From the NCBI GenBank assembly GCA_964016885.1, contig OZ024751.1, positions 1,116,001 to 1,180,000 of the forward strand: DNA of 64,000 bases. Direction: 5' to 3'. This document shows, piece after piece, positions 6,111-63,960 of the stretch. Below the pieces are notes generated by a model. That model saw only the letters and a list, made by a program, of their open reading frames with translations, searched no databases and had not been told where the DNA came from. The position numbers and the translations under genes are program-made. Numbering within the stretch: the stretch's first letter is position 1; each line of letters starts with the position of its first letter. This DNA is from Eledone cirrhosa. Lineage: Eukaryota.

Positions 6111-6148
<38 letters not shown>

Positions 6149-8232
6149 TTTGGAATAGAATAGAAAGAACTAGGAATAAGGTTAATAGAATAAACTCATG
6201 GTATGATAGCAATAAATACCAGAGTGTAATGTTCATCAATACAACCCCTAGAGGTGAATTAGCTTACAAATTTAGAAGGGCCCTAGATAAACATAAACTC
6301 AATATTAAGATAGTAGAAAGACCAGGTACCGCCATAAAAACACTTATTAGCAATACATACCCTTTTCAAAGACCTCCCTGTATAGATAAGAAATGTATAC
6401 TCTGTAAACTAAGCCCCCATATTAACTGTAAAACTGGAAATGAAGTATATAGCATAAGATGTACTGAAGGACAATGTAGAGATACGAATATAGTATACAT
6501 AGGTGAGACAGCTCGTAGTATAGGAGAACGGATAAATGAACATTGGCGAGAGCTTCAAGATAGAAAAGAATCATCTGTACTCCACCAACATGCTAAAATA
6601 GAACATAAGGGCAAATTAGAGAACATAGAAATAAAAATAGAATCCAAACACAGAAAAGACGCAATGTTTAGACAAATCACAGAGGCAATAAACATAAATG
6701 AACTCCAACAAAAATTAAATAGAAAACATGAATGGAATAACAACATCACAACTTACAATTAAGGTCAAAATGAAAACACACACACACATAGAACAAACAA
6801 CCAACCAGTAATATGTAAATAAACAAATAAATAAACAAACAAAAACACACACAGACACCCGGATGTAACACATGCGCAAATTAAGCACACAACACACACA
6901 AAAACAAGATGGCGTAGGACAGAACAAAGGAGAGGCACAAAACAAAGAAAAGAATCCCCAGTCACCGAAGAGGTCACAGAATGTGTGACGAAAGAACTTT
7001 GACAATATATGAACAACCGTCCGGTTGAGGAACCAACCAACCAACCGGAAATTTATAAATTCTTAAATTTATAAATTTAATTTATAATAAATTGGAGTGA
7101 AGCAACTGGTGCGTGTGTTTCTTATTGGCAACATGACCCTCCCAAAGCATAACAATATCGGTTTCAACACACGTTTTCAGATAAAGAATCTTGCTAAACA
7201 AATTCAGAAACGAAATATATATATATATATGTATATTAGGATTGGTGCTCTGAAATAGCGATGTATACATGAATGTATGTATAGTATATATACATACATT
7301 CATGTATACATCGCTATTTCAGAGCATCAATCCTAATACCTAATTTTTGCTGGACCGGCCATCGCTCTGATTATTACTGGAATTCTATAAGAATCCAGCT
7401 TCTATAATTTTCGGCAGAAGCAGGCTCTCATGAACGCCAACCAGCGTGAAACAGACTGTAAGCTTCTCTCCCTTCTTTCGTCGAAAAGAAGTAAGTGGCA
7501 TAGACACTACTTTAAAACTGATAGTGTATGGTCTTCTAAATGTTTTTAATTAAACATATGGAATATGGCCAAATATACTTTACATACATTCATATATATA
7601 TATATAGACATTGTAACTTCCCCAGACACACACAACACATACATATACATACACACACGCATACACACACAATCACAGTACGTTTTGTGTGAAAGAGAGA
7701 GAGAAAGAGACGTAAGGTTGAGGAAAGGTGAGAGCTAAACAGTGTGTAAAGAATGAATAAATAAAAGTTAAAATTATCCAACGCTGGTATCATCTTCTCC
7801 TCTCCCCAAGCCCGCTCACTCTCTTTCTTGCTTTCTCAACCCCTCTCTCTCTTTTTTATCATACCCCCCCCCTCTCTCTCTCTCAAACCCTCTCTCTCTT
7901 TCTCTACAGAATGGAGAAAATTGAAGAACGCACATTGTCGTATGCTTTGTTGAAATTTTTTTAATGTATATTAATAATAAGTTGTTGCCTCGTTTTGGAA
8001 GACTGAGTTGTGGGAGGAGGAAGGGGAGTAGTGGTACTGAAACGTCTTCTCTTTCCTCTTCCATTGTAGAGATGCTCCCAGGGGTTCCATTATTGAAATC
8101 TAATTAGCCAGTCCTGTTTCTGAATATAAGCTTAACATGTGTGTAAAGTTTCATCAGGATCGCATCACTCGTGTAGGTGCCAACTGGTTATAAACACAGA
8201 TACACAGACAGACAGAAATTGCCATTTATATA

Positions 8233-31680: not shown

Positions 31681-32661
31681 GAAAAATAAGAAGTTAGAAG
31701 TTGGGATTATCCATCATCAGTTGTCTACTAGGCGCCATAGGCATTTATTCGCATTAAAGACATGATTCCTCGGCCTAGGGCGAAATAATAACTATAATAA
31801 GTTATTGGGATAAAGAGAAGTGGACGGAGAAAGAGAAGGACACATATATATATATATATATATACACAATATATTAACAAATGGAAACTATATTTATAAA
31901 ACCATATTTATTTCATTATACATATTTCAAGGACACCAAGTTAAATTATGGTGTGCTTTCATCAGATAAAATATAATATAGAGCAGTTTTATAAATAAAT
32001 ATTGACATACCCTTAAAGAATGCGACCATTTCTATCCGGAAGCTTCCAACAGAAATGGTCGCATTCTTTAAGGGTATGTCAATATTTATTTATAAAACTG
32101 CTCTATATTATATTTTATCTGATGAAAGCACACCATAATTTAACTTGGTGTCCTTGAAATATGTATAATGAAATAAATATGGTTTTATAAATATAGTTTA
32201 CATTTGTCAATATATCGTATTTTTACTCCAATAATTTGTTGAGTGCTTTATATCAGTTATAATAATATTTGCTTGTTGTATCCCAACAATTTAAATAGAA
32301 CTTCTACATATATATATATATATATATATTGGGTTTAGGAAGGGCATCCAGCTATAGAAATCAAGCCAAAATCAGTTCCTGTATGAGCAAGGCATGGTCA
32401 GCCGACCAGACACTGCCCACAACAGGACAACCCGTCTAACCCATGTTAGCATGGAAGAACGGACGTAAAACTGTGATGATGATGATGATATATATATATA
32501 TACAGACACACATAATGCACTGTGGTAAGATGTACTGTCTTTAATGCGTCAAAACATCAGTGACCCGCAGCAGACAGCCGAAGAGGAGGAAGTATCCTTA
32601 TGTTTGTGTTTCTCTTACATTTTCTAAACTACACACACACACACACATATATATATATATG

Positions 32662-32758
<97 letters not shown>

Positions 32759-33099
32759 CTGTTGCTTCACCATTTTGTTTGTTTACACTCGCGTCCCCTT
32801 TATTTACGTGTCCCAACGACTTTTTTTAGCCGTTACTCGCACCAACCGGAGGTATATGGTCTTTAAAGCGATGAAATGCATATGATGGTTGGAAGATCAC
32901 TGATGAAGGACAAACTTTTTTGTATATATATATATAATAAATACAATATCGAAGAAAGCTTTTTAGCGATACTCCATATATATACACATATATATGTATA
33001 TATATGAACCAGTTGGTTCCTATTACCCACTCTACTACCCAAAGTATTAAGTACTTTGGTGCGTTATGGTCCACCTGGTTCCTTACCACATTTCCTTCG

Positions 33100-33158
<59 letters not shown>

Positions 33159-33437
33159 CATAATTGTTTCTACTTTAGGCACAAGGCCAGCAATCACCCA
33201 GTGCATTACTGGTACTTTATTTTATCGACCTCGTAAGGATGAAACCTTAATATCATTATGTATATATATATACACAATGATATTAAATAAATGGAAACTA
33301 TATTTATAAAACCATATTTATTTTATTATATATATTTCAAGGGTAACCAAGACTAATAAAATAAATATGGTTTTATAAATATAGTTTCCATTTATTTAAT
33401 ATCATTGTATATATAATATATATATATATATATAGAA

Positions 33438-38543: not shown

Positions 38544-41500
38544 GGGAATGATACCTAAGGGGTCTAATGACTACTTATCGAAAATCCCAGGAAACCCGCG
38601 TATAGGAGAAATTCAAAAGATAGTACTAATGGGAACTGCCCATATACTAAGGAAGATTCTGTCAATATAAGTACACCACAAGTCTAAACACTAAAGATGC
38701 ATGTGTGAATATGTATGTTCTTTCTTGAACATGGCGGACCTTGTTGTCTCTTGAGGTCACTGGTTGTGACTTGATGATAACTCGTATGAACATAAAGCAA
38801 GATAAATGCAACTGTAATAATAATAATAATAACTTGATACACCACCTATCCCATCACACTAAATATAACAGCCAGATAACGGCAATTTCACCAGCATCAT
38901 AATAATAATTACTATTATTATTGTCTCAAATTAAAAAAAAAAAAAATGTTTAATTCCGATTTTACGGGAATATGTCAACACAATATATAATAAAAATATA
39001 TAATAAACATACGAACACAAACTCATAGATACTACATATCAGTAACCACAACGCCACCGCTGCCACCACCCACCCCATCCATCATTGCTACCACTATCCT
39101 ATCGCCGCCGCCACCACTCCTTCATTGCTACCACCACTATTCCCCTGTTAACTTGAGAGAGAAAGGGGAAGATGGCGGTATCACTAGACAAGGGAGAGGC
39201 TAGCAAAATATATAAATAGATTGACTTAGTGACCTGGCCACCGGCCAAACGTCAACATCAACAACTATGGGACTGCTGGCTCACCCCTTCCTCACCAACA
39301 ATATAAAAAGCCCCGGCACCACCACCACCGACATAGCCAACAACAATAACAGCCAACTACAACAAAAAGTATATTATATTATTGTAATGCACTGGGTGAT
39401 TGCTGGCCTTGTGCCTGGAGTGGAGACAATTATTAATAATTTAATTCTTAAGCCACGCAATGCTCACATTAAGGAACCACTCATGATAATAACAATTTAA
39501 AAAAACAACAAAAAGAAAACCCCGTGACCAAGAAATACCGGGATGGCGGCCGGCGGGGAATAGCCGTGTCTCTAGGGGAGAACGACCCCTCTAGTCTTGG
39601 TTGACACTCGTTCTAGAAGTGGTAACACGAAATGATTACCCCGTGGCGGATAAGGATAAAACGCGACAAAATAAAGTAAATGTCTAATGATAAAATCTCA
39701 TACCGGATCGGTCGTCACCCGGGTAAAAAAGGGCCGCGTCCCTCAGAGAGGAACCAGACTGGGGTCGAAAAATCAGCTAATGGTTCAAACCTTCCCATCA
39801 CTTCGGAGCTGGAAACCTCCCATAACCGGAATACTCCTACTGTTGGCCCTCCATGCTCACCACCAAGAAATCCAAAGAAAAAGAGAGAAAAATGGTCAAG
39901 GGAAGATAATAAAGAAGTCCTTGAGGCTTTCTACACTGCCATGTACTACCCATCAAATACATCGAATACAGAACAGACATATATCAACTGGAAAAAGAAA
40001 CATCCCGAAAACAGAGGCTATATTGACAGTAACAAACTAGCCAATATACGAAGAAATATTGTAAGAAAAAAGTTACTAACTGATATAGAAATTGATCAGA
40101 TCAAGCTATTAGCACAAAGTCAGCGAAGGGAAAATGAAACATGTGTCAGTGAAAACGAGGTAAACTGTAACACTTCGAATCCCAGGGTTGGGGCGGAATC
40201 ACTGGCAACAGAACAAATTAAAGAAAGGATCGAAAAAGTGGAGGGAGTGCATGCTCAGGATGAAACTCCAAATGAAAATAATGAGATCGTAAATGATAGA
40301 GAAATGAATGAGAATGAACTTGCCAACTTGAAGGATGAAATTATGATCGAATGGATGAAAATGAAAGAATCTGACATGGGGCAACGAGACACCCTCCCTA
40401 AGATCCAGAACTCCAAACAGAACCAAAAGATAATACACAAGACTAACATAATTCTCAAAAACATTATCATCACAAACAAACTAAACATTACTGATTTAAA
40501 TCATCTCTATTATGCATCGGCTAAAGTCACCACTCACTTATGTGGAGTGAAGATGAAAAAACAAAGGAATTCCCACAAGAAATCTACTTGGCAAGAGAAC
40601 ATCAATCGCCAAATAAACCTTCTCCGATCTGACATAGAAATTTTAACAAACTATAAAGTAGGTGAACATGTTAAACAAACTAAACTTAGAAAATTGAAAA
40701 AAAGTACAGTATAAAATCAACATGTGACATAGACATGCTGATAGAAATAATCAAGCAAAAAGTGTCGGCCAAAGCTGCTCGTATAAGGCGCTTTGAAAAA
40801 CGATCTAGATTCTATAAGGACAATAATATGTTCAAAAACAACCAAAGAAACTTCTACAGAAAAATTGGTAAGTCAACAATAACTGCTAAATAAATACCAC
40901 CCAAGGAGGAAGTGCAAGAATTCTGGGAAAAGATCTGGGCCGAAGAAAAAGTTCATAACATACATGCCCCATGGATAGACAGACAAATGAAAGATACAGC
41001 TCACCTTGAGGAACAAACATGGGAAAATATAACAGTTGAACAGTTGCGCTTGGCTCTAAGAAAAACCAGCAAATGGAAATCCCCAGGAAAAGACAAAATA
41101 CAAAACTTTTGGATAAATGCCTTCACAGAGTCTCATGAGCTGTTAGCCCAACTTTACAATGAAATAGTTAAGGAGCCAGAACAGATACCATCATGGCTAG
41201 TTAAAGGCATTACATTCCTGCTTCCGAAGAATGATGAGACAAACAATCCCAAAAATTACAGACCGATAACTTGCTTGACCACAATATATAAAATTTTAAC
41301 ATCAGTCCTAACTGAATACACATATGACCACCTGATAACAAATGACCTATTTCCCATTGAGCAGAAAGGGTGTAAACGAGGCTCATATGGCTGTAAGGAT
41401 CAGCTTCTGGTTAACAAAATTATACTGGAAGATTGTCATAATAGACACAAAAATCTATCGATGGTTTGGATAGATTATAAAAAAGCATTCGATAGTTTGC

Positions 41501-44500
41501 CACACAGTTGGATTGAAAAATGTTTAGAGATTTTCAAAATATCCCCCGTTGTCAGGAGGTTTTTGTCATTCAGTATGAAGACATGGAAAACGACACTCCT
41601 TTTGAATAGTGAAACAAAATCACTGGAAGCTGGAGAAGTTAATATTAATTGTAGAATTTTTCAGGGTGACTCTTTATCACCGCTTTTATTCTGCATCGCA
41701 CTTATACCATTAAGTAAAATGCTCAATGAAACAAAACATGTATATAAAGTCTATGACAAAACCATTAATCACCTGTTCTACATGGATGACCTGAAACTAT
41801 TTGCAAAAAATGATGAACAATTGCAAGGGCTATTATCCACTGTGAAGCAGTTCAGTGATGACATTAAAATGGAGTTTGGACTAGATAAATGCGCCCAAGC
41901 AACGTTCACCAGAGGAAAGCTGCTGAAGAGTTCAGACATTAATCTTGATCGGAGGAACGTGATAAGAGAACTTGATCAAGAAAAAACTTACAAATATCTA
42001 GGTGTTTGTGAAGGAGACGGAATCAAGCACTCGACAATGAGGGAAAGGATAAGGAAGGAATGTTACCGCAGAGTAAGAGCAATCTTAAGAACGGAATTGA
42101 ATGCAAGGAATAGGATCGATGCCATAAACACGCTTGCCATACCAGTAGTAACCTACAGTTACAATGTCATCAACTGGTCAAGCACAGAGATCCGTAGGCT
42201 CGATACAAAAATTCGAAAATTCTTAACCATGCACAGAATGCATCACCCTAAGGCAGATATAGATAGAATATATCTCCCTAGGAAAGAAGGAGGACGTGGG
42301 TTAATCCAGTTAGACATTGCGTTGAAAACTGCAACAATTGGATTATCTACATATCTAAGGGAATCACATGATTGGATGATCAAACTCGTTTTGAAACACG
42401 AAAGCATCAAAAGATCATATTCCATTACAAAAGATGCACAAAGATACAGTAATGGACTACAAATTTCAGAAGTCCCATTTACTGCTGAAATGGAAAACAC
42501 AGAAAAAGCAAAGCAGGTAAAAGTAACTGCAAAGAAAGAACTGCTACAGAAACTGGCTAAGAAATGGCACGAAAAGCCTCTGTATGGAAAATACCCAGAG
42601 CGAGCTAACAATCCTGATGTTGACAAAACTTTAACCCATCAGTGGTTGGCATCCTCTGGACTGAAATCGGAGACTGAAGGACTGATTATATCGGCACAAG
42701 ATCAGTGTCTGCCAACAAAAAATTACCAAGCCAACATAATAAAAAATGGGTGCAGCCCATTATGCCGTGTATGCAAAAAACAACCAGAGACCATTGACCA
42801 TATAATTTCAATGTGCAGTCCTATAGCTCCAACCGAATACCTAAACAGGCATGACAGAGCTGCACAATACATACATTGGATAATGTGTAAGCATTTTGAC
42901 CTGCCCCATCAAAAGAATTGGTGGGAGCCTCAACCACCTCCCATACTTGAAAAAGATCACATCTCAATCTTGTGGAACTTTAGCATCCAAACAGACCGAA
43001 AAATAGATGCAAATAGACCTGATATAATATTGAAGGACTTTCAAAAGAGGGTATGCCTGCTAATTGATATGTCTGTTCCAATAGACAAGAATGTATCTAT
43101 AAAAACATTTGAAAAATTGAGCAAGTATAAGGACCTGGAGATAGAAATTGGAAAAATGTGGAAATTGAGAACTAAAACAATACCAGTGGTTGTAGGCGCT
43201 CTGGGAATGATACCTAAGGGGTCTAATGATTACTTATCGCAAATCCCAGGAAACCCGCGTATAGGAGAAATACAAAAGATAGTACTAATGGGAACTGCCC
43301 ATATACTAAGGAAGATTCTGTCAATGTAAGTACATCACAAGTCTAAACACTAAAGATGCATGTGTGAATATGTATGTTCTTTCTTGAACATGGCGGACCT
43401 TGTTGTCTCTTGAGGTCTCTGGTTGTGACTTGGTGATAACTCGTATGAACATAAAGCAAGATAAACGGCGACCACACCTGATCACCGTCGAGGAAGAGGT
43501 GGAGATGTCGTAGCCTGAGCGCGTGCCTGCGCATCATCAGCCACGGCATGCCCAGCCCTCCACGTAGCGGGTGTTGACAACAGATGGACCGCCTGACCAT
43601 CGGAGCGCGTCCCTTCCACAAGAAGCGAAAGAACAAACGCTCCAGCGCAGTCAGGCGAGCCTTAGGACAAGGTACGACGGTCAGGCGGTAGCAGATGACA
43701 GACGCGATGTACGCGTTAGCCACCTCCGCTCGACCTTTCAGGGATAGCTTCCTCTCCGCCCATTTCTGGGTGAGAGAAGCCACCCTGCTCGTCACCTCGT
43801 CCCAGTTTTTGTCCGTCTGGAGGTCCGGACCGAACCAGACCCCTAGCAATTTAACCGGTCCGCCCAGCGTCCGACGACGCTGTTGGACGGCATGGACCTG
43901 CCTCTCCAGGTGCCGAGCTGCAGGCCCACTGACTTTTCCTGGTTGATCATTGCTCCTGTTACCGCTTCGTATTCTCTTAGTGTAGTGCCGATCGCTTCGA
44001 TGTGTTTGGCGTTCGACACCACTACGGTGACATCGTCGGCATATGCTGACACGGATCTTCCGCATCCTAGTTCTCGAGAGTCAATACGTACAAGAGGGAC
44101 GAGAGGGGACATCCTTGGCGGACCGAGCGCATGTTGAACGGTTCCGACAGGTGACCGTTCACTCTCACCACAGAGCAGATGTCGCTGTGCATGGCAGCGA
44201 TCCAGCCTCTGAAGACGGGCCCAAAGCCAGCCGCCCTCAGGACTGCCGCTAGGTAACGATAGTCGACCCTATCGAAAGCTTTCGACTGATCTAAATTGAT
44301 CAAGGACCCACCCGTGCCAGGTTCCCTAGCTACCCTCTCTACGATATATCGCATGAGGTGGAGGTTGTCGTGGATGGATCTGTCGGGAATGGCGCATGTC
44401 TGCGCCTCTCCCACCAGACCAACAACGACAAGCGCCAACCTCTTTGCTAGCACCTTGGCCAAAATCTTGAACTCTGTGTTTAGCAGAGTTATTGGCCGGA

Positions 44501-52511: not shown

Positions 52512-55500
52512 GCAATTGAGCAAGAATAAAGACCTGGAGATAGAGATTGGAAAAATGTGGAAGTTGAGAACTAAAATAATACCAGTGGTTGTAGGCGCTC
52601 TAAAGGGTCTGATGATTTCTTATCCCAAATCCCAGGAAATCCGCGTATAGAAGAAATACAAAACATAGGACTAATGGGCACAGCCCATATACTAAGGAAG
52701 ATTCTGTCAATATAAATACATCACAAGTGTTCTTTCTTGAACATGGTGGACCTTGTTATCTCTTGAGGTCACTGGTTGTGAGTTGGTGAACATAAAGCAA
52801 GATAAAAGAAAAAATAATAATGCTAATGATAATCATAATTACTATTATTATTGTGCAGGGTGAAAGACTGAACTTGTTAGCTACAAAGGAGGACTACAAC
52901 GTCACAGTGAATAGGCAAACATGCACGATTGTTTCCTTAAGCATCAACCAGCTTGAGTGCCGTTGGGATAGCGGAGATGTCGATTATGAAGCAGATTACA
53001 ATATCATGGTAAGACAATAAGATCAAACATATATAGGTTCAAATCCCATGGTCAATAATATATATATATATTTATATATATATATATATATATATGAGAC
53101 ATGGGCCTTGTGTGCAGAGGATCTGCGCAGACTGGAGAGGAACGAAGCTTGCATGCTCCGTCGGATGTGTCATAGTAATATACGTGAACGGCAAAGCATA
53201 AATGAACTAAGTGAGAAATTAGGAATAAGATGCTGTTTACTCAAGAGAAGACTACGTTGGTATGGTCACGTGATGCGCATGAAAGACGACAGCTGCATAA
53301 AAAAGTGCAAAGCGATCAAAATAGATGGAAGTTATGGAGTAGGTAGACCCAGAAAAACCTGGGACGATTTGATAAATTCCGACCTTACACACTTACACCT
53401 CTCCAAGACAATGTCACTGGACCGAGATCTTTGGCACTACGCAGTAATACAGAAGACCTGCCTTGCCTAAGTACAAAGCGAAACCTACAGTCAGTAGGCA
53501 CCTCCTAACCAAAAATACACCCCATCCCACTAACCCCCACCCCCATCTACACCACCCCTTTCTCTGTAAAGTTATGTTGGTGCCACAACATCCAGTCCTA
53601 AATAAATGAGGTCGTGTAGGTGTCAGGACAAAAAAACACAGTCCACGCTGTAATATGGCCGTGTAGGTAACATGGTAAAAACCTCCCAGTCCACACTGTA
53701 AATGTGGTTGGTGTTAGGAAGGGCATCCAGCCGTAGAAAACCCGCCAGACAGTCCTATACGAGCAAGACAGCCAATCTTGCTTAACGTGGGACAATTCCT
53801 GTCTAAACCCATGCTAGCGTGGAAGATAGACGTTAAACGATGATGATGATGATGATGATATATAGTAAAACACTTTCACACCCACCCACATATGGCGGAT
53901 TAAACAGGGATTTCGAGACTAGAAATAGATAGTAACTTAACCAATACCATGCTAGTCGCTCTGCAACGATCAATTGACTCTCTGAAACGATTGTAAAACA
54001 ATGAACTAACTATCTTAGCAATATATCTGTATTAGCAATATATATATATATATATATCAGTGGAAAGCAGGGCATGCAGTCTAATCGTCATGGCGGAATG
54101 TGGGGCTGTGCAGCCTTATGCCCCCTCCAAATTCCCTCTAAATGACCCTCCCGGTCAAAGCCGCATGTAGTGTTATCTTGTGTGTGTGTGTGTGTTATCT
54201 TTTTATGTGTCTACAATTTAGTAAGCAGTCAAAATTCTGCTTGCTTCAACCGACGCAATTGATCAACTCAAGATTCTATAACGCATGCACTACATGCGTT
54301 GCATGCACGGATCCTTCGCCCCTGATATATATATATATTCATTGTTTTGCGATCGTTTCAGAGGGTCGATTGATTGTTGAAGATCGACTAGCATGGTATT
54401 AGTTAAGTTACTATCTATTTCTAATCTTGAAATCCCTGTTTAATCCACCATATGTGGGTGTGTGTGAAAGTGTTTTATTATATATATCATATATATATAT
54501 ATATTATTGACTGACGTAAGAAAGAGTACTCAATACTGAAGTAGCATTTAAATATTCTTTATTATGGCTATACTGGAGTTTTACCCATGCACAGGTAAAA
54601 CTTAGTCATAATAAAGGATATATATATATATACACAGACAGACACATATGGTAATGTAATAATAAATGTGAGGACTAAAACCCGTAGAGCAAATATTTAT
54701 TATAAGTACAGATTAAAATTTAAGCAAAGAATCGCTACTTTTACCTTTTACAGGATCTTCTGAAATACACACACACACACACATATACATATACATATAT
54801 ATATATATATATATATTATATATACCCATGCATATTGAGATATGGCCTGTCTTTATACATTGAAACATATGTAGAATGTTGTAAGTCTTGATTACTCTCT
54901 CTCAATTTACTAACTATATATATATATGTATATGTGTATGTATGTGTATAATATATATGTATATATATTATATATACATATATATAAATAAAGTGAAATG
55001 ACAGGAGGCCAAATATGCTGAATTTCCTTAATTTTTAATTATTGTAAACACTATGCACATTACAGTAGCCAGGTTGTGTAATAACGCGGTGATCTCATCA
55101 GATGTAAATTGCGTAATATATATATAATCTATCACAATTTCATTAATGTTTGCTTTACGTTTCTCTGTTTCACAGATCACTCTTCAATGTCTACCATCTC
55201 CCCTTGAAGGACAACCAATACTAGCGATGAAATCAACATTACATATCATTGCAATATTCCTTATTGGTATATTGATCATATTCATAGTCAGTTTGGTGTT
55301 CATCAAATATAGGGAGATCCAGAAAAAAATATATCCAATCGACTCTTATCTTTTGGAAAATGGTAAAGGATTATAATTTTATTTTTATTGGGGTGGCGGA
55401 TAATATTTATTTCATTTAAGTTCTTCCTCTCGAAGGTGATGGAGCAGTATACTGAATGCTTTACAATAGATAGAGCCATTGTACAAACGGCTGCACTACA

Positions 55501-60384: not shown

Positions 60385-63300
60385 GTATGTATATATGTTC
60401 TTCTGGTTTTATAATTTCACAAATGTTTGCCAATAGAGAGAGTCGGTTTCTAACATAGATACAAGATTCTCTTATTGGAATTTACACATCAGCTAGGTAG
60501 ATATGTCTGCATGTCTGTATGCATGCATGTGTGTGCAGGTATGGATGTGGTTGTATGTGTCTATGTGTATGTTTTGAGTTATATGTGTATCTGTACAAGT
60601 GTATATGCAATTAGATGCAGAATTTTTGGAATGTTTTACATATTTTTAGTGTTCCATTAATGGATTGTACTTGTAATTTCCTAACTAATTGTGTTCTTTC
60701 TGTTTCTGTGATGCCCAACTTCTCAAGATTTATATTGAGGCAGTTACTAACACATCCCAGTGCCCCAATAAATCTGAAGGTATAGTGAGGGTGGAGTATC
60801 TGCAGATTTCTCATTAGTTCTGCATAGATATTCTCCTTTTCGCCAATCTTTAATATTATATTCCACTACTACTAAATTCCACTACTGTGTATGCCTTCTT
60901 TTCCCTGTCCCATATCATTATATCTGGTCTGTTATGTCTGCATTTTATTGGGGTTTTTACTGGAACATTCCACCAATACTCTTTCATATTGTATATATGT
61001 ATGTCTTCCACATTGCTGTAGCTTTTAATGCGTTTATTGTCAGGGCTATCTTTTCTATGGATTGCATTGTACAGTGTTTTGGATAATGCTTCATAGGTAG
61101 ATAGTACCATCATGACAACTTTGGACAGCTGCTTATGACGTGGGTGACATCTTCAATGTTAATTCTGAAGAGTCTGCACTTGTCACATCTAGGTGTGTTG
61201 CCTGCATCCCTATCTCGTTTGTGAATCAGGTATTTTGTGTTGATTTCTTGTTCTTGGATTGCAAAAGCGTATCCTTCAAAGTGAGAGATAATATAGCGGT
61301 TGTTGGTCCAAGTTAGACTACTTTCCTTATCTATATTACTCTCACTCTGGAGCTTCCTGGCAACATATCCATGCATGAATTTTTGCTGATAAGCATGCAG
61401 TTTTTCATCCATGGATTCACTGCGATATTGCTGAGCAATTTCTCTGGGTTTAAGTTTTTGATTATCACACAGGGAATATCTCTCGAGGAGTTGCTTCCCA
61501 ACTCTCATGATCTTATGTGTGTCATGCAGATAGACTTTCTTAATAAATGGGTTTTCAGGTTTGTAAATCTTGTCAATGAGACACTCAAATGTTGTCTGGA
61601 CTGATGTTAGGCCTCTGCCTCTCTGCTTACGTTCCAAGTAAAGGAGGCCTATGTCACTGTTGATGTGGAAGTTTCCGGTGTTGTTTAGAACTTTTTGAGT
61701 TTTAACATCAATTGCGCTGATTTCGTCTATCATCCAATTGAGTATTCCAAACGTTGGTGTTAGGACAGGCACAGCAAACACATTGTGAGCCACTGTTTTA
61801 TTGTGCGCAGAGAGTTCTGATAACCATATTTTTCTTAATTAGGTGTAATATTCCCTGGTTACGTGTTCCTTATTACAAATATCATTATAGGATATGTTCT
61901 CATCTATCCCCAGGTATCTGTAGCAGTCCTTGTCAGATATCGGTGAAACAGTTAGGCCATTGATAAAAATGTTGCTAGATTGGGTTGTTGTTTTTCCCCA
62001 CTTTACAATCCTTTGAGAATGTTGTAACCAGGACAAGATTTTTCTTCATCCCATCTATGTTCTTGGCATAGAGTTTCAGGTCACCCACAAAGAAATGATG
62101 GGTTAAGTTCGTATTTCTGTCCTCCTGTGAGCCAGTGATGTATCCTTTACATTTATTGAGCAGAAAGGACAAGGGGTTTAACGACAGCATAAATAGTAGC
62201 ATAGAGAGACTGTCTCCTTGAAATATACCTCTATGAAATTCTATTTTATCAGTGATCTTTTTAACTTTAGGATAGTAGCCCAAGAAGATAGCTTCTCTAT
62301 GGCCCTGATAATAATGTCTGGGACTTTAGCAAGTCGGAGGGCCTCTATCATCCAAGAGTAGGAAACAGAATCAAAAGTTTTCCTGTTGTCCAGCCAGACT
62401 GTAACCATATTCTTCCCAAGTTGTCACACCTCCAACATCGCAGTTTTGTTGATTAGGAGTTGTTCAGCACACCCTCAAACACCTTTCTTTCCAGCTGCTT
62501 GTTCATCTGTGATGATGTTATTATTTTCACAGGGATCTTGGAGAAATACGTTCAGGAAGGCTGTATACCTCTTATATATCAGGTTCTGGCATGCAATGCG
62601 TCGGTAGTTTTTTGCCAGTGGATGTCTTTGTTCTTGGGGACCAGTATTGTTTGTGCCAATGTCAACCATTCTGGTATATGTGTATCTCCCTAGAGAACTT
62701 GTTGGTAGAAGTCGATAAGATACATCCGATAGAATATCAGAATTTTGTACCAGTAGCCGACAATCATATCTCTTCCTGGTGGTTTCTTATCTTGGAGTTT
62801 TCCTATCACAGTCTCAAGGGTATCCTCATTTATTTCGTATGTTTTTGTTGTAGTGTAGGGGCAATAGTTCTTTTGTATTTCTTTTAGTCACACTGCATCT
62901 TGGCTGAAATTCTTCTTTTCACCCCATATTTTTCTCCAAAAGGAATCTGTCTTTCTGGGATGGGGCCTCAATGACATTTATTACTTTGCCCTTCATATCT
63001 CTATAGACTGATGTTTGGTTTCATCTGAATCTTTTATTAAGTACTTTTCTTAGGTATTGGCGTTTCTCGCTGACAGCTCTCAATTCTTGTTTGAAGAGTT
63101 CTGGTTGTACTGTCACAAACATCGTTTCTATTTTATTTTTCACTCTTTGTTGGTAAGGAGTGAGGTTTTTTTGTGTTTGTTTGCATGTCACATATCCTAT
63201 AGTTTTTCGTAGGTCAGCAACCTTTTTTTCTATTTTAGTTATATATGATGGTATTTCTTGTGGTGTTTTGGTCTTGTTAATATCTTGTTAATATCCAAGA

Positions 63301-63960
63301 TAATGCTTCACAGTCGTTGCTAGGGAATATAAACAGGCGTTGATTTGCCAAAATGTGGGGGTTTTAATCCGTCGTAAATATTAATCCCCTATTTCGTCAA
63401 TAGCACGTAAGATTTCATTATTTGGTTTTATTTTATTTAGTATTGTTGTTTTATTACGTTCAGCAAGAGAAATGTTTATATATGAATTAATTTCTCTCTG
63501 GTAGATTTCGTTGAGGGAAAATTTCAGTTGTTTATACCTTTGATTATTATTAGCGATAATGTTTTCCACAACAGTCGAGGCAGACTTAGATTGTACACAT
63601 GGTGTCAAATTTCTTACGGGCATAGTTGTTTCAAGACGCTGTTCAACCTGGCTATGAGGAAGTCTAGTAGCATGGCGACCTGTAGCACGTGTTGTTGATA
63701 ACATGTTTGTTCTGGGGGTCTTACAATTAATAATATTTATCTTATTTTTACGTTCAACAGACGTCGCTTGTTGGTGTAATTGTTTCGCTGTGAAGTGATT
63801 TAGCTCTGGGTGCATTTCGTCCCAGTGTAGCTTCATTCTGTTCATATAGCCAACGGAGGGATTTTTTTCACCATTTTATAGCAATTAAATAAATCATCAT
63901 TAAGTTCGCAACTCCAAGAGAAATGCGCTTTATAATTTCGGTTTCTTCTGTAGCTACAAC
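60385..63960 (-). mobile_element. Decayed near full-length R4-like RLE LINE
   Basis: [35 protein letters not shown]...EDVTHVISSC, HNRPDIMIWD; many frameshifts. Confidence 0.88.

Follow-up and report, generated by a model that had tools for sequence, protein, structure and literature searches.

Insertions of EN+ Penelope-like elements (PLEs) show strong 5′ truncation, frequently have an adjacent inverted copy, bear a tail of 30–40 bp on one side and favour microsatellites as targets, according to the excerpts of PMC8557442 on which we draw, in which the role of the hammerhead in PLEs is termed unclear; short palindromes at PLE head-to-head junctions are described in excerpts of PMC3846280. In the portion of PMC11167929 used here, two RT start sites delimit the tail, both strands of the target are cut and then extended by the protein, and hammerhead cleavage is dispensable in vitro. 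PLE hammerheads have a small palindromic helix III and usually a G10.1-C11.1 closing pair, and in Schistosoma mansoni they form opposite-strand pairs 100–700 bp apart that were mostly attributed to truncated PLEs (excerpts of PMC4209133). The triplet AUA is naturally cleavable and relatively slow (excerpts of PMC1636495).

The locus described here lies in a 64-kb window (the whole stretch of DNA that was analysed; all coordinates are window positions) and consists, in order, of (TA)n, an inverted arm, a junction, a sense arm, a tail and (TA)n. We interpret it with good confidence as a heavily 5′-truncated Penelope-like insertion, in which only the hammerhead-bearing end of an element, its pseudo-LTR with the tail, was copied into (TA)n and the inverted second copy likely stems from the same insertion. 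The features are as follows.

31844–31864, no strand: (TA)n tract, left flank.
31866–32033, minus strand: left arm, an inverted, tail-less copy of the element end with a full hammerhead motif (arm alignment).
31909–31973, minus strand: mirror-copy hammerhead motif, core start 31965, predicted cut 31917/31916 (descriptor scan; mirrors 32111–32175).
32034–32050, no strand: inversion junction of 17 nt with short palindromes of 10 bp at 32038–32047 and 6 bp at 32035–32040 (sequence).
32051–32218, plus strand: right arm, a non-coding sense copy of the element end and putative pseudo-LTR segment.
32111–32175, plus strand: type I hammerhead motif, predicted cut 32167/32168 (descriptor, fold prediction, covariation).
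32219–32307, plus strand: one-sided extension (‘tail’) of ~89 nt with a small hairpin at about 32273–32289 (read depth, contigs).
32308–32329, no strand: (TA)n tract, right flank.
33274–33408, no strand: shorter head-to-head family copy with a different centre and no tail, between (TA)n tracts.

The two arms (31866–32033 and 32051–32218) are identical at 165 of 168 positions and separated by a 17-nt spacer. The palindrome is real and bears one complete hammerhead motif per arm, the two ribozymes being a single sequence duplicated in mirror image. All three mismatches (32200, 32208 and 32216) fall within the outer 19 bp (P about 0.001), leaving the inner 149 bp free of any difference; this clustering could be explained by arm–arm conversion, a mixed template or polishing of the assembly. 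The deviation from the family at 32200 and 32208 is in the right arm, the left arm keeping the family letter at both positions. Near-perfect inverted arms of about 168 bp beside (TA)n had been claimed in the original prediction, and they are found as described, with (TA)n in fact flanking both ends; its extent of 31866–32218 holds for the palindrome, but the unit runs on rightward to about 32307. The tail is present beyond the right arm only, the left arm abutting (TA)n directly, and all three sense frames contain stops across 32034–32310. A 23-nt direct repeat between the flanks (31842–31864 and 32306–32328), considered as a target-site duplication, is indistinguishable from microsatellite chance, since 14 of the 45 (AT)n tracts of the window start alike. 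No contig among those listed crosses the exact centre of the palindrome at 31866–32218 (31-nt rule), so that independent proof extends to the head-to-head junctions of the family and not to this particular palindrome.

PLE terminal repeats can harbour introns. At 32075–32080 on the plus strand, some 40 nt before the core of the hammerhead, a GTATGT resembles a 5′ splice site.

In the right arm, the hammerhead core comprises CUGAUGA (32119–32125), GAAA (32156–32159) and AUA (32165–32167). Stem I (32111–32118 with 32168–32175) has 8 bp including one G-U and can be lengthened to about 30 bp if bulges are allowed. Stem II (32126–32155) comprises nine pairs and a C.C mismatch under a loop of 10 nt, and is closed by A-U, not G10.1-C11.1; stem III (32159–32166) is near-palindromic, with three pairs and a 2-nt loop. 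The motif thus has the conserved core and three stems of a type I hammerhead, the third of which requires a partner. A hammerhead descriptor run over the whole 64 kb matched twice only, once in each of these arms, against a mean of 0.1 (loose) or 0 (strict) in 60 dinucleotide-shuffled windows, and the loose form matched none of 20,000 shuffled arms. The original prediction thus correctly placed a complete core in the right arm and the same on the minus strand of the left arm, and it described all three stems accurately, as an 8-bp stem I, a long stem II and a short near-palindromic stem III. A search with Rfam models was negative: there was no match at gathering score in the 64 kb, and at E ≤ 10 the segment 31800–32300 yielded 15 sub-threshold matches, mostly generic hairpins and no hammerhead.

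Folding predictions depend on how much of the locus is transcribed. For the isolated ribozyme region, pairing probabilities of 0.54–0.62 for stem I and 0.93–1.0 for stem II (C.C step excluded) are predicted, with 0.0 for stem III as a monomer. For a transcript of the whole palindrome, a hairpin of −259 or −271 kcal/mol is predicted and the probability of hammerhead stems I and II is 0.0. The arms are head-to-head and both ribozymes point away from the centre; an RNA reading through from either flank therefore contains the antisense arm first and then the sole sense ribozyme, and with one sense ribozyme per strand, stem III lacks a partner in cis and no monomer is flanked by two cuts. A transcript entering from either side is thus predicted to close up as a 168-bp hairpin in which the ribozyme fold is lost, and only transcripts begun inside the centre would expose the hammerhead motif. 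On these models the hammerhead is a passenger in the copy at 31866–32218, which runs counter to the suggestion in the original prediction that self-cleaving RNA arises from either strand.

To place this copy within its family, four public sequencing runs, X1, X5, X6 and X11, were compared with 31740–32300, the shares in X8–X10 being small; of the four, X1 is possibly the window’s own sample and hence not independent. In X1, 5,907 contigs match, and in X11 (organism A, RAD) 30,759 of 12.47 million reads do so, 29,269 of these only partially; two further organisms (B and C) hold 55 and 23 contigs of the family. The hammerhead-arm family is very abundant and of high copy number, in agreement with the copy-number check of the original prediction. 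Read depth remains high across 32219–32290, and single records link arm and tail in three organisms (32111–32262 in X1, 32201–32262 in X5 and 32179–32277 in X6). In 22 X1 contigs the sequence passes from 32220 directly into (TA)n, which shows that tail-less ends are common. At 32040, within the junction, a G replaces the local A in 98% of X1 depth and the other letter is found in 686 of 706 X11 reads, so the family continues past the centre of the copy at 31866–32218, and X5 contains a 255-nt loose end upstream of 32072. The letters of this copy at 32040, 32200, 32208 and 32263 are absent from 96–99.6% of X1 depth; the description of the element as young is therefore borne out by arms that are 98% alike but not by these four letters.

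Head-to-head joints were recognized in the listed rows (15 of 20 joints and 12 of 26 with intervening letters), from which 13 were retained and eight dropped (three confined to a single arm, two with an end in the tail, two on opposite strands and one going back). There are thus at least 13 antisense-to-sense joints, each with a different centre and with asymmetries of −126 to +90 nt. Because the centres vary among copies, the palindrome is not a fixed unit, and the dedicated element of the original prediction is not upheld; nor is the locus a tandem retrozyme. Two of the dropped rows read as head-to-tail junctions, from 32200 back to 32067 and from 32030 to 32229 (X1, one contig each), and may correspond to partial tandems of the kind expected of EN+ PLEs. 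The combined depth of the two arms declines from 3.15 million near 32186 through 1.1 million at the core to 0.64 million near 32072, and is steeply lower upstream of about 32060; summed depth is not copy number and is distorted by diverged subfamilies that drop out at stem II and by a reference that ends at the centre. The gradient toward the centre fits 5′ truncation, although variable centres and a depth gradient could also be obtained from later central deletions in a long palindrome. Among the arm ends listed, 6 of 26 lie within 32088–32114 and 11 of 26 within 32152–32181. Peaks of X11 read ends at 32137 and 32291 were considered as element ends and rejected, as both lie at AATT sites and are taken to be RAD restriction ends.

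The second copy in the window (33274–33408) differs in how its arms end: one extends into stem II and the other starts 2 nt before the predicted cut site. It also carries 32163 G>A, which turns stem III into a perfect palindrome, and replaces the stem I wobble by A-U. The palindromic, dimer-type stem III of a type I hammerhead that had been proposed is thus a near-palindrome in the first copy and a perfect one in the second, and 32163 G>A makes up 37% of X1 depth at the mirror position. Stem II covaries among copies, as the original prediction had asked of a functional stem: among 40 of the 139 variant rows, 32131 C>U occurs with 32150 G>A, converting a C-G pair to U-A, and in the loose-end consensus 32154 U>C accompanies a G at 32127. 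A subfamily (4,766 X11 reads at 31933; also X6) has a different, longer stem II, read by eye as 12 pairs in 14 steps, and retains the C.C step. This covariation points to selection on the RNA. No variant falls on the 12 core positions among the same 40 of 139 variant rows, a depletion that is not significant (P 0.3). The hammerhead is a real, selected feature of the parent RNA, in which it would probably act as a dimer in tandem transcripts.

One X6 contig has a loose end at 32145 and keeps the 3′ part of the arm, giving a hammerhead of minimal form whose stem II is very short. The family may include short-stem-II forms.

The interpretation as a truncated Penelope-like insertion draws on several features that occur together. 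The locus has a terminal-repeat hammerhead with a short palindromic helix III and an adjacent inverted, 5′-truncated head-to-head copy with a junction palindrome, and each of the two window copies sits between (TA)n tracts, as expected of an AT-rich or microsatellite target. These features, together with the one-sided tail, support the link to PLEs that had been drawn originally. Against this reading stand the tail of ~89 nt, which is long and encodes no ORF start, the absence of G10.1-C11.1, and the lack of an Rfam match and of a recognizable target-site duplication. Among the window ORFs, none with RT/GIY-YIG lies in or next to the insertion; Pfam searches of 176 window ORFs (32 + 144, excluding eight short ORFs of a tandem array at 17.4–19.0 kb) gave no GIY-YIG match and only LINE-type RT and AP-endonuclease pieces, and exact-pattern scans returned zero matches in metagenome contigs, prokaryote genomes and viral contigs. 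With no parent RT/GIY-YIG ORF linked to the family, we infer PLE membership from structure. A PLE protein encoded elsewhere would cut the (TA)n target, and reverse transcription would begin from a start site at the tail end and halt after about 260 nt; the mirror arm might then result either from fold-back at the 10-bp palindrome of the junction or from a second round of priming, on the other strand, at a nearer start site (32218).

A more specific version of this proposal holds that the shortest arms start at the cut site, so that thousands of genomic copies would record cleavage of the template RNA in vivo, and that the two arms are separate cDNAs, primed on either strand of a single (TA)n break and begun at two different RT start sites. 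We regard this as speculative and rather unlikely. Hints in its direction are the short arm of 33274–33408, which begins 2 nt before the cut, and the 11 of 26 listed ends within 32152–32181. Summed depth rises 2.4-fold across 32152–32181, but this stretch was picked post hoc and diverged stem II subfamilies could mimic the step.

Several other explanations were weighed against the truncated-PLE reading. The nearest to it, which we hold to be possible though doubtful, is that the family is non-autonomous, a short PLE derivative that has a master RNA of its own, a few hundred bases long, and is mobilized in trans by the same insertion chemistry; it differs in the template alone, as no copy would then have an upstream ORF. 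That the unit and its tail are without a coding frame, and that depth is steeply lower upstream of about 32060, would both suit such a derivative, and non-autonomous PLE derivatives are known (excerpts of PMC8557442 and bioRxiv 10.64898/2026.07.22.740005), but the drop in depth can be a reference edge effect, and the letter at 32040 and the 255-nt loose end in X5 indicate that the family extends past the centre. At the far end of the scale is an assembly or library fold-back artefact at 31866–32218, an idea invited by the 149 bp of perfect identity and by a centre left unbridged among the listed contigs. We consider it extremely improbable because each side has distinct flanks, the arms differ at three positions, the left arm carries the family letter at 32200 and 32208, the window holds a second copy with another centre, and many head-to-head joints occur in the public runs.

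The palindromic form itself suggests two further possibilities. A DNA transposon of foldback or MITE-like type, bounded by long terminal inverted repeats, carrying a captured PLE hammerhead and inserting at TA, would account for long inverted arms, TA-rich flanks and the tail-less symmetric second copy at 33274–33408, its centres varying by internal deletion; it is very improbable in view of a tail that is one-sided and arm-linked in three organisms (X1, X5 and X6), where symmetric fixed termini are expected, and of the apparent head-to-tail junctions and the stem II covariation, which points to RNA selection. A purpose-built palindromic ribozyme retroelement or retrozyme, releasing self-cleaving or circular RNA from both strands, is in our judgement very improbable. 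Both motifs are intact, stems I and II are predicted to fold in the isolated region, AUA is naturally cleavable, and transcripts diverging from the centre would leave both motifs exposed; yet the read-through hairpin is predicted to leave the hammerhead stems a probability of 0.0, each strand has one sense ribozyme, the centres are not conserved, and the retrozymes described in excerpts of PMC7229834 are head-to-tail. We retain the truncated Penelope-like insertion as the best explanation.

Other repeats in the window provide context for this locus. Within 6148–7010 on the plus strand, the end of a 5′-truncated PLE-type ORF follows a (TA)n tract, with a cysteine-rich linker and GIY-YIG-like motifs recognized by eye and no Pfam match. 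We take 6148–6762, on these motifs, to be the PLE-type endonuclease end of another family; it has no DNA likeness to the palindrome arms, and its presence means that such elements exist in this genome. A decayed hammerhead-like motif lies near 6965–7005, ~200 nt after the end of this ORF, and an unrelated 105-bp palindrome (7234–7338; 96%) with a one-sided continuation lies beside (TA)n and is possibly a second PLE-type stump. Flanking the palindrome at 31866–32218 in opposite orientations are two copies of another repeat, 69% alike (31681–31830, minus strand, and 32811–32913, plus strand), both of which have CTGATGA shortly before (TA)n and may be decayed hammerhead-bearing ends. A nearly intact non-LTR retrotransposon occupies 39680–43329 on the plus strand, with RT, CCHC finger and restriction-like endonuclease motifs seen by eye; its 811-aa RT ORF (40894–43329; CCHC and restriction-like C-terminus by eye) has no DNA likeness to the palindrome arms. 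A decayed relative of this retrotransposon lies at about 61100–63900 on the minus strand, and a 147-bp inverted pair, 91% alike (53858–54004 and 54339–54485), encloses nested (TA)n and other inserts.

That each strand carries a hammerhead is, in this case, a by-product of inversion. The family is nevertheless usable as a resource, being abundant and small and having an intact ribozyme motif with covariation, and a map of its many centres could show if the 5′ ends track the cut site and by what route the mirror arm is built. Copies in head-to-head arrangement would, in addition, naturally supply long hairpin RNA that could silence the family. We found no description of this particular family in the literature covered, which was the main text of mostly non-subscription papers.

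Compared with known systems, the family is like metazoan non-LTR retrozymes (Cervera and de la Pena 2020, excerpts of PMC7229834) in being short, non-coding and AT-rich with a type I hammerhead, but retrozymes are head-to-tail repeats of 150–450 bp that release monomers and circles, whereas the arrangement here is head-to-head. A tandem retrozyme was rejected on this ground, the window having one sense hammerhead per strand where excerpts of PMC7229834 and bioRxiv 10.64898/2026.07.22.740005 describe head-to-tail repeats. The likeness to Poseidon PAc of Anolis carolinensis (Frangieh et al. 2024, excerpts of PMC11167929) lies in two end points downstream of the hammerhead that bound a tail and in an AT-rich target, and the cutting and extension of both target strands by PAc in vitro could yield two head-to-head cDNAs. 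The ORF of PAc begins at stem II, and its RT starts 85–92 nt past the cut (same excerpts), whereas the two ends at this locus are 51 and ~140 nt beyond the predicted cut and no ORF is present; unlike in Pen2a and PAc, the tail is without an ORF start. The hammerhead is like those of PLEs (Cervera and de la Pena 2014, excerpts of PMC4209133) in its type I design with a long helix II and a small palindromic, dimer-type helix III, and its opposite-strand pairing is like the S. mansoni pairs 100–700 bp apart (same excerpts). It is unlike them in its longer stem I (8 bp, extendable to ~30), in A-U for G10.1-C11.1 and in the conserved C.C step. Overall, the insertion is like 5′-truncated EN+ PLEs (Arkhipova et al. 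2013, PMC3846280, and Craig et al. 2021, PMC8557442, both in excerpt) in its inverted head-to-head copy, junction palindrome, one-end extension, microsatellite target, terminal-repeat hammerhead and high copy number, and unlike published EN+ PLE insertions in that no ORF is in or linked to this copy and the tail is ~89 rather than 30–40 nt. Its anatomy is thus already known from truncated PLE insertions, and opposite-strand hammerhead pairs have been published previously (excerpts of PMC4209133).
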